Shown here in pieces: positions 47,051 to 48,929 of a stretch of 64,000 nucleotides of DNA. Under the pieces are notes generated by a model. The model was not told where the DNA came from. It ran no database searches and saw only the letters and a list, made by a program, of their open reading frames with translations. The translations under genes were made by a program, and so were the position numbers. This stretch comes from Octopus vulgaris (Eukaryota). The stretch covers positions 22,568,001 through 22,632,000 of the forward strand of contig OX597823.1 in assembly GCA_951406725.2 (NCBI GenBank), given 5' to 3'. The number at the start of each line of letters is the position of its first letter. Position 1 is the first letter of the stretch.

Positions 47051-47058
47051 ACTCACCT
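47051..47058 (-). promoter_or_regulatory. Putative 5' splice donor (3' UTR intron)
   Basis: Minus strand GAG|GTGAGTA consensus donor. Confidence 0.6.
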
Positions 47059-47094
47059 CTCCATCATAAATCCTTTGTTAATCTCTTAGTTCCA

Positions 47095-48888
47095 TCAAAT
47101 TTTACAAGCCACAAGGAATATTTCCCTCTCAGTCAACTCTAGAATGTACCAAGATGGAAAAATTTGGTGAAGCCAACTGGTTCCAACTGGTAAGAACATA
47201 TCTAAATTACAATGAAGGAATTTAAAAAATTTCTGCAAACTGTGTAGTTGTTCTGAGAGTATCTGTTGATCGAATTCTTTCTGTTCACAGAGGACACTGA
47301 TCAGAGCAGAGAGATTACTTCCAATAACTTTCCCAAAAAATAATTTACCAAAATTTTCATCTTTTGATAATGTAAGCAGAAAGTCTCGGATATATCCAGA
47401 ATGACTCACTACAGTTTTGCACTGAACACCTCCATTTTGAAACTGAGAACATTCAAATGCATTTATTACTGCCTCCATGAAAAATTTGTCTGGTGTTAAA
47501 ATGATACTTTCAGAAGTTTGTGTAATATATTTAGAGATGTTAGACTTGACAGAGATATTGTGGACCTGAGTAAGATGCCATTTCATTTGGAACTGTATTG
47601 AATGACACAAGGAACATATGCGGCAGCCATAATTCATTTCAGTTTTGTTATAACTGCTTATATCACAATAGAATTTCTGCTTCCATTTGGGTAATTCTGA
47701 ATGGAAGTTACTCATGTGTGTCTTAATTTGATGAAAGATTGCTTCACAGTAAGGTACAGGACATTTTACCAAATAGTCTGACTCTGAGAGAATCATTCTT
47801 GATCTTTCTTCAGTTTCAAAAATTTTGTTTGGCATTTCATGCCTGCTTGAAGTAGAATATGGTGTTATCAACAGAGTTTCATTAGTTCTTTCAAATCCAT
47901 TCTGTGAATCAGAGAAATCCAAATCCGTGCCTTCATTTTTAATTGCTGATAGAGATTTAAGTTCATTTTCATCAAATAACTGTTTAAAATTATTTAACAA
48001 TCCATTAGAAGTTTTTGGATCTGGAGAAGATATTCTTTGAAACTTAGACCTAAAGTGACTATGTTTGGAAGAATTAGCAGTTAATCCATAAATGCTTTTA
48101 TCATTATCTGTTTCTGTTTTCAAATCTGAAATCAAATGTTGATTCATGTTCAAATCTTGTTGCTTAGAAGATTGAGAATAGTAATAATCACTTGAAGAGT
48201 CCAATATGTATGTATGGGAATCTAATGAATCTAAGCAGCTAGAAAATGTTATCTGCTTCACAATTTCACAATCCAAATCCGTTTTACAGAAGTTGGAATT
48301 TAGATGAAAGTCTTGTTCATATAATGTGATAGCATTTCTCGGGAGTGTCTTGAATGTTATAACTATGTCATCTTTAAAACATTTATAATTTCTCTGAATA
48401 AAATTCTGACCAAATTCATTGGTGGTAAATGCTTTATTCCACTGTCTCTCACAGTTTAAATTTCTTCTCTTTAATTCTTGCATTTTGACAAGCTTTCCTG
48501 CAACTACAGAATCATTATAAAATGTCTTGTTGTCTTCAGGGCATAATAAAGAGTTGGAATCTACAGGATTAATGCTGTATTCTCTATTTTCTGAATCTGG
48601 AATGACAGTGATTTTATAATGACATTTACTATCCTTGAAGAATGTTTGTTTTCTATAAGAAATTGATTTCTCTTTAATTCCATAGGAAATGCCTGGTATA
48701 AATCTGTCAGTGCTAGGATGTTCAAATTCTTGATGATTACTGTTACAATAGTGATGACAGACATAAGAGATGTATTCTTTCCAATCAAGTGAATTGTATT
48801 CCTGGATAAAGCTCAAAGGTATACTGATTTCAAAAGTAACTCCATTTTCTAAGAATTTTAAATATTTCTTCATTCCTGAAAGAGCCAT
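47095..48888 (-). CDS. 597-aa protein with two atypical C2H2-like fingers and a C-terminal helical region resembling a tyrosine-recombinase core-binding domain; single coding exon
   Basis: Uninterrupted non-repetitive 1.8-kb ORF in AT-rich DNA; CPVPYC-X9-H-X4-H and CSLC-X9-H-X4-H; splice acceptor 41 nt upstream and GTGAGT donor 38 nt downstream of the stop. Confidence 0.8.
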   Translation of the reverse strand: MALSGMKKYLKFLENGVTFEISIPLSFIQEYNSLDWKEYISYVCHHYCNSNHQEFEHPSTDRFIPGISYGIKEKSISYRKQTFFKDSKCHYKITVIPDSENREYSINPVDSNSLLCPEDNKTFYNDSVVAGKLVKMQELKRRNLNCERQWNKAFTTNEFGQNFIQRNYKCFKDDIVITFKTLPRNAITLYEQDFHLNSNFCKTDLDCEIVKQITFSSCLDSLDSHTYILDSSSDYYYSQSSKQQDLNMNQHLISDLKTETDNDKSIYGLTANSSKHSHFRSKFQRISSPDPKTSNGLLNNFKQLFDENELKSLSAIKNEGTDLDFSDSQNGFERTNETLLITPYSTSSRHEMPNKIFETEERSRMILSESDYLVKCPVPYCEAIFHQIKTHMSNFHSELPKWKQKFYCDISSYNKTEMNYGCRICSLCHSIQFQMKWHLTQVHNISVKSNISKYITQTSESIILTPDKFFMEAVINAFECSQFQNGGVQCKTVVSHSGYIRDFLLTLSKDENFGKLFFGKVIGSNLSALISVLCEQKEFDQQILSEQLHSLQKFFKFLHCNLDMFLPVGTSWLHQIFPSWYILELTEREIFLVACKI

Positions 48889-48929
48889 TTCTTTTCATGG
48901 AATAATATCAATCACATGGAAACATCTTT

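Follow-up and report, generated by a model that had tools for sequence, protein, structure and literature searches.

What is the origin of the one long gene in a 64-kb stretch of the Octopus vulgaris genome (contig OX597823.1, positions 22,568,001 to 22,632,000; the whole of these 64,000 nucleotides is called the window here), and what could its product do? The window consists of animal DNA rich in AT and in microsatellites, and the gene, on its minus strand, encodes a protein of 597 residues, P0001, with two zinc fingers of unusual spacing. On balance, we consider it probable that P0001 belongs to a conserved octopus gene whose C-terminal 225 residues come from the DNA-binding half of an animal tyrosine-recombinase DNA element, without the catalytic half; it is predicted to be a nuclear regulator binding DNA or chromatin. 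A preliminary description, made from the letters alone, had pointed to such an origin. The parts of the gene are the following (X3 and X5 are sequencing runs introduced below).

47057..48929, minus strand: single coding exon of 1873 nt, with 41 nt of 5' untranslated region, the whole coding sequence (CDS) and 38 nt of 3' untranslated region (from sequence and contigs)
47095..48888, minus strand: CDS of P0001, 597 amino acids (aa) plus stop, with the ATG at 48888 and the TGA at 47095-47097
48930..48951, minus strand: splice acceptor, a pyrimidine tract and CAG, the CAG at 48930-48932 (from sequence and X3/X5 contigs)
47050..47056, minus strand: splice donor GTGAGTA, read as GAG/GTGAGT at 47057/47056, 38 nt after the stop (from sequence)
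48830..48925, minus strand: three upstream ATGs in the exon, opening reading frames of 5 aa, 1 aa and 22 aa (out-of-frame, overlapping the start)

The frame had been described as the only long intact one in 64 kb, lying whole in one exon between a strong acceptor and a consensus donor. Both sites were seen in the sequence, and among the 73 stop-to-stop frames of at least 100 aa in the window the 597-aa frame was the sole long one that did not read out a microsatellite or tandem repeat. The probability of 599 stop-free codons arising by chance at the base composition of the window was 5e-22. An in-frame TGA is located 6 nt upstream of the ATG, and the CDS is therefore not extendable by any upstream exon. 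P0001 was 98% identical to the Octopus sinensis protein XP_036361704.1 (LOC118764784), annotated as uncharacterized, and is its orthologue. By the usual rule, a stop within 50–55 nt of the last junction spares a message from nonsense-mediated decay; since the stop of P0001 lies 38 nt before the donor, its message should escape. Residues M1 and M6 were both conserved, and one public record begins at M6. The upstream ATG at 48898 was altered in run X2 only.

The contigs of four runs (X1, X2, X3 and X5) were compared with the window between 46140 and 54500. Runs X3 and X5 come from one study, which is not on record as RNA, and X2 is a much larger run. Contig 18 of X3 covered 47057–48932 and went on past the acceptor for 211 further letters, as did contig 27 of X5 for 134. 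The contigs of both runs ceased to match the genome at 48932 and continued with other letters, for which the upstream exon was not located. Splicing at the acceptor, proposed at 48929/48930, is likely from this departure. At the other side, X3 contig 18 ended exactly at 47057 and shared a 30-nt overlap with a contig of lower depth entering the intron. A contig of X1 read past the donor to 46941, where matching stopped and 105 more letters followed, and one contig of X2 was colinear through both junctions, spanning 46659–49754. For the donor proposed at 47056/47057 the contigs go only as far as suggesting that it is used, though not in all molecules, and the 3' splicing of the exon may be variable. 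Two more donor-like CAG/GTA sites were visible at 46900–46960, below the proposed donor.

The reading frame showed signs of purifying selection. The X3 contig differed from the window at 23 positions and, among the 22 listed, 21 were coding, 10 of them synonymous and 11 non-synonymous. The dN/dS ratio, which the preliminary description had named as a check, was below 1: omega was about 0.3–0.4 (range 0.28–0.42, p 0.004–0.04). Codons 435–597 were free of X3 differences (p 0.001). Homologue searches of 5.8 billion clusters and 1.84 billion representatives returned only the window's own cluster, the clusters of P0003 and P0008, and the protein P0023. P0003 (597 aa) was 81% identical to P0001; in the last 62 residues 61 were identical, compared with 79% elsewhere (p 8e-6). 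P0008 (681 aa) was 31% identical to P0001 over the C-terminal part, P0023 (735 aa) was 33% identical, and the two shared 54% of their residues. All three proteins retain the eight zinc ligands, as well as the motif with which P0001 ends; P0008 stops at the same residue as P0001, and P0023 continues for 30 residues past it. Only one copy of the gene was found in the window, and its flanks lay in one colinear contig in X2. A search restricted to proteins of 1193–3405 aa gave no relative, which is weak evidence, and a search of the named clusters of the Atlas gave no usable match. The proteins P0009–P0012 were rejected as relatives, being canonical finger proteins or repeat artefacts. With its open frame, selection, shared stop position and contig evidence, P0001 behaves as a conserved, likely spliced host gene.

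The protein was divided into five regions.

47773..48888, minus strand: N-terminal region, residues 1-372, of no known family; residues 201-372 are acidic and Ser/Asn-rich
47701..47763, minus strand: zinc finger 1, C376-X4-C381-X9-H391-X4-H396, its four ligands invariant in 5/5 aligned homologues
47560..47616, minus strand: zinc finger 2, C425-X2-C428-X9-H438-X4-H443 (from sequence and alignment)
47197..47493, minus strand: four-helix domain, residues ~466-564, for which a recombinase core-binding (SAM-like) identity is likely (structure model 1, fold search, spacing and alignment with element ORFs; not supported by model 2)
47098..47196, minus strand: C-terminal tail, residues 565-597, containing W580, an invariant residue 17 positions from the end of the protein

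The two fingers (C376–H396 and C425–H443) have the C-X2/4-C-X9-H-X4-H form given in the preliminary description. They differ from canonical C2H2 fingers (C-X2/4-C-X12-H) by the X9 spacing and gave no match to the Pfam family zf-C2H2. The X9 spacing was also present in P0003, P0008 and P0023; the finger pair measured 68–69 residues in this octopus family, and K401 and K403 were among its invariant basic residues. Of the two peptides quoted downstream of the fingers, both were recovered (residues 474–504 and 546–559); the double glycine did not stand as a family trait, only G486 being invariant. No Pfam match was obtained in P0001, P0003, P0008, P0020 or P0023, including DUF3504, ALOG and Phage_int_SAM, and comparison of P0001 with Pfam, PHROGs, NCBIfam and the PDB sequences gave nothing useful. 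The long N-terminus had been called unrecognised, and residues 1–372 indeed resembled no known family. A motif of the type R-x-H-[FL]-x-F-N-[DE]-D was noticed there by eye and regular expression: about five copies spaced by ~50 residues in P0008 (residues 20–260) and P0023 (45–290), and one or two in P0001 (residues ~79 and 166). This repeat matched no family.

In which other genes does such a finger pair occur? A degenerate DNA pattern written for a pair of X9 fingers, and selecting on the fingers only, matched once in the window and in 0/100 shuffles. In metagenomes, where one Cys-Pro codon form was scanned, 63 loci matched, 29 of them with the pair in frame. After removal of the 34 loci without an in-frame pair, 5 simple repeats and 1 ordinary finger protein, 23 loci remained, representing 8 lineages, and 6 of the 8 contained recombinase genes. 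The loci were chosen on the fingers alone, and the link between fingers and recombinase is therefore independent of the helical domain; by the same choice, a finger-pair match by itself would be circular as evidence of family membership. The recombinase genes were found at the following positions of the metagenome loci.

L023:1516-3726, X9-finger recombinase gene
L037:746-2890, X9-finger recombinase gene
L008:1733-3989, X9-finger recombinase gene
L020:3713-6448, X9-finger recombinase gene
L030:218-2011, X9-finger recombinase gene
L045:18-1989, X9-finger recombinase gene
L062:543-2080, X9-finger recombinase gene

L023 (737 aa) and L037 (715 aa) each consist of one open reading frame (ORF) in which a finger pair, an acidic linker, a helical domain and a catalytic domain follow one another. 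The catalytic domain shows NAxR, HKT, TxxR and HMCH followed by the Tyr, and the Pfam families PF00589 and PF13495 matched at E 1e-4 to 1e-5, under the cut-off. The same parts were recognized in L008/L011, L014/L020, L030 and L031/L045, and by eye in L062; L024 ends before the recombinase region would show. The architecture put forward in the preliminary description exists in natural ORFs, with tandem X9 fingers, F..H..S.(D/E)GG, a helix L..L..F..F and a catalytic domain. This family of tyrosine recombinases (tandem C-X2/4-C-X9-H-X3/4-H, pair span of 63–70 residues) is diverse, at about 20–60% identity, and below every Pfam cut-off; several of its genes seem interrupted by introns or stops. 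In L008, 40-nt inverted repeats bracket the recombinase gene in a compact unit of 2.3 kb. A reverse transcriptase was present in 1 of the 49 flanking ORFs scanned (L032, upstream and on the opposite strand), which we infer to be a neighbouring LINE, and a retro-element (DIRS) donor was rejected on this count. The inverted repeats and the near absence of reverse transcriptase make the donors look like DNA elements. Viral contigs gave one out-of-frame pattern match, none with a second pattern, and no relative of P0025.

The helical domain was compared with these elements and with known folds. Two structure models were available, both of low confidence. The preliminary description had anticipated a resemblance of residues ~370–597 to recombinase core-binding domains, and this was borne out by model 1: its top 7 fold matches were all recombinase-fold proteins aligned on their N-terminal domain, with 3nrw and 1a0p among the top three. 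Model 2 did not reproduce it. Distances between anchors, which were picked manually in 4 proteins of the family and 5 ORFs of the elements, were 74–76 residues in the octopus family and 70–80 in the elements between the Phe of helix 1 and that of helix 4, and 26 and 28–37 residues, respectively, between the latter Phe and the Trp. Beyond the Trp, 17 residues are left in P0001 and 348 in L023 and L037. HHalign paired helix 4 and the Trp of family and elements with a score of 18.6–20.5 and a probability of 2–4%; this score was reached by 0/100 column shuffles and 1/100 block shuffles. Judged from sequence, core-binding homology is marginal. Taking three tests of origin together with the advance prediction of the preliminary description, we regard common descent of the helical domain and the recombinase core-binding domain as quite likely.

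Several observations speak against the derivation from a recombinase or against DNA binding. The fold search with model 2 gave no recombinase, HMM-to-sequence scores between family and elements were about zero, and the pairwise global scores were not significant (z 1.0–1.6). One X9 pair (L013:9-1564) was located in a phage-like gene adjoining a helical domain of 5-hmdU DNA kinase (PF18723, E 1.6e-19), with no recombinase within the 1.6-kb contig. The net charge of helix 4 was 0 in P0001, whereas P0008/P0023 have +6 and the elements +1 to +4, and the fingers of P0001 were less basic than those of the elements and of P0008/P0023. The model 2 result and the L013 pair, together with the lack of any significant sequence match to a recombinase, would suit an orphan zinc-finger gene with a generic helical bundle, in which the X9 spacing arose separately. 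We consider such an orphan unlikely, given the uniform recombinase fold of the model 1 matches, the six recombinase lineages out of eight, and the agreement of the domain order and three anchor distances with the elements.

The charge values bear on another possibility, in which the origin is the same and DNA binding was lost in the subfamily of P0001, the recombinase-derived half serving as a module of protein interaction or dimerisation. The uncharged helix 4 and less basic fingers would suit it, as would the last 62 residues, which remain 98% identical across a split of 81%. Nevertheless, none of the eight zinc ligands varies, basic residues including K401 and K403 are likewise invariant, the other subfamily (P0008/P0023) retains a strongly basic helix, and the precedents ALOG and MrpR, described below, are DNA binders or predicted ones. 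This loss of binding appears improbable to us, and a DNA- or chromatin-binding role remains the preferred reading.

The second half of a recombinase was absent. An HMM derived from 6 catalytic regions of elements gave about 0 bits on the octopus family and a best E of 4.9 on 2081 six-frame segments of the window, with no catalytic domain. A catalytic domain with the residues R-K-H-R-H/W-Y was lacking in P0001, P0003, P0008 and P0023, in keeping with the earlier statement that no R-H-R-Y domain follows in the protein; none was found elsewhere in the window. In-frame splicing to a catalytic exon was rejected, as the sole late consensus donor, at codon 494, falls within the helical domain, and the window holds no catalytic domain. 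BLASTN of flank against flank revealed no element termini, again as first described: the one match (160 nt, 76%, same orientation) was away from the gene, and no repeat pair adjoined it. These results also concern the idea that P0001 is not domesticated at all, being a truncated or split element gene still open by chance. A CDS contained in one exon and an omega only moderately below 1, on 21 differences, would be compatible with it. The frame, however, is open and ends alike in homologues at 81% and 31% identity, the flanks are orthologous in run X2, and neither termini nor a catalytic half accompany the gene, so that a chance remnant is barely credible.

We propose that the DNA-binding half of a recombinase, namely two X9 fingers and the core-binding domain, was domesticated separately from DUF3504, probably by a single truncation at the linker, before the split into two subfamilies. 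With the catalytic half missing, P0001 would be unable to cut DNA. Helix 4 of the core-binding domain is a DNA-contacting helix; this likely recognition helix has lost its positive charge in P0001. DNA contact by P0001 would more likely be made through the fingers, and the C-terminal end, near-invariant and uncharged, would more likely be a surface for protein or self-association. The prediction is that the fingers and helical domain bind DNA sites resembling those of the ancestral element but do not cut them, and that partners are recruited by the new N-terminal region of ~370 residues. In recombinases, it is the N-terminal helical domain that takes hold of the major groove, on the opposite side from the catalytic domain (PMC3537659). 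Telomere repeats or 28S rDNA are the targets of related enzymes (PMC10871703), and microsatellites those of some CryptonV elements (PMC8869645), which makes repeat-type sites the first candidates for P0001. A protein that keeps the binding half and misses the cutting half might also act as a dedicated brake on cognate elements, occupying their ends or poisoning recombinase complexes, much as MrpR, which has the recombinase fold but no recombinase activity, is a repressor of its own element (PMC10516654). No cognate element is present in the window, and strong C-terminal conservation would be more in keeping with a host partner than with an arms race; we regard a brake as very unlikely and retain the host regulator.

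The closest precedent, to judge by analogy, is the plant ALOG domain (DUF640; LSH1/G1), in which the four-helix N-terminal DNA-binding domain of a XerC/D-like recombinase stands alone, without catalytic domain, and whose best HHpred matches include 3nrw and 1a0p, as for model 1 (PMC3537659). P0001 would work like ALOG, yet it is not ALOG. ALOG traces back to DIRS1-type retroposons, and a zinc ribbon is inserted in it between helices 2 and 3 (PMC3537659); P0001, the protein of an animal, carries two C2H2 fingers ahead of the domain, and the donors resemble single-gene DNA elements. The ribbon insert (HxxxC, CxC) was absent from the family alignment, and no DUF640 match was found in Pfam. Solo ALOG ORFs in Nematostella are raised only as a possibility (PMC3537659). 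The preliminary description had instead called P0001 analogous to, and distinct from, the DUF3504 genes (WOC, ZMYM2/3/4, QRICH1, KCTD1b and KIAA1958). These are also animal host genes from a tyrosine-recombinase DNA transposon, catalytically dead, but they keep the catalytic fold and P0001 keeps the N-terminal half (PMC3212892). The distinction holds, with no DUF3504 match and the catalytic fold lost, and the closest analogue is ALOG instead.

For the donor, the layout matches that of the nimaviral telomere-associated recombinases and related crustacean proteins, with C2H2 zinc and SAM-like domains before the catalytic domain (PMC10871703). Likened by description, it is seen in L023, L037, L008, L020, L030 and L045, and truncated in P0001. 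The nimaviral proteins are full enzymes in endogenous viruses (PMC10871703), unlike the window, where no viral genes were seen, and they are not close to Cryptons (PMC10871703). CryptonV elements of Repbase are likewise animal recombinase DNA transposons, some of them microsatellite-targeting (PMC8869645). CryptonV is one candidate name for the family of the donor. MrpR keeps both recombinase domains, unlike P0001 (PMC10516654), and the fungal Gcr1/Ndc10 family comes from CryptonF-type elements without the X9 finger pair (PMC3537659, PMC3212892). Searches of an open-access library returned no paper on the gene or its family.

Animal recombinase domestications in the literature covered retain a dead catalytic fold (DUF3504). 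If the proposed origin is true, a fixed gene from the other half of a recombinase represents a separate route of domestication, argued so far mainly for plant ALOG, an uncharacterized octopus gene gains a named origin and a testable function, and a cephalopod regulator is tied to a donor family of X9 fingers, core-binding domain and recombinase below all Pfam cut-offs. More speculatively, and with clear reservations, the gene could represent an undescribed cephalopod family from one old capture of the finger-plus-core-binding half of a little-studied animal recombinase transposon, an animal counterpart of ALOG, divided into one subfamily that is basic and binds DNA and another that is neutralised, and still reading repeat-type targets such as microsatellites and telomere-like arrays.

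Elsewhere in the window, five frames (35546-36666, 4267-4647, 9546-10046, 21478-21813 and 29897-30421) resemble pieces of non-LTR retro-elements, and one of them contains a zinc-knuckle-like motif; none had a Pfam match at E 0.001. The CpG-rich stretch at 57.5–58.5 kb was rejected as a promoter, as it consists of repeats with no clear promoter. A palindromic element was located at 58320-58637, with arms of 61 and 69 nt that are 93–97% complementary and head-to-head TTAGGG-type repeats at its centre; it adjoins a tandem duplication of 277–299 nt with the same terminal motif, and the two together form a CpG-rich patch. At 5677-6508, a remnant of a mariner-type transposase was recognized in two frames (Transposase_1, E 6e-20; Mos1 HTH).
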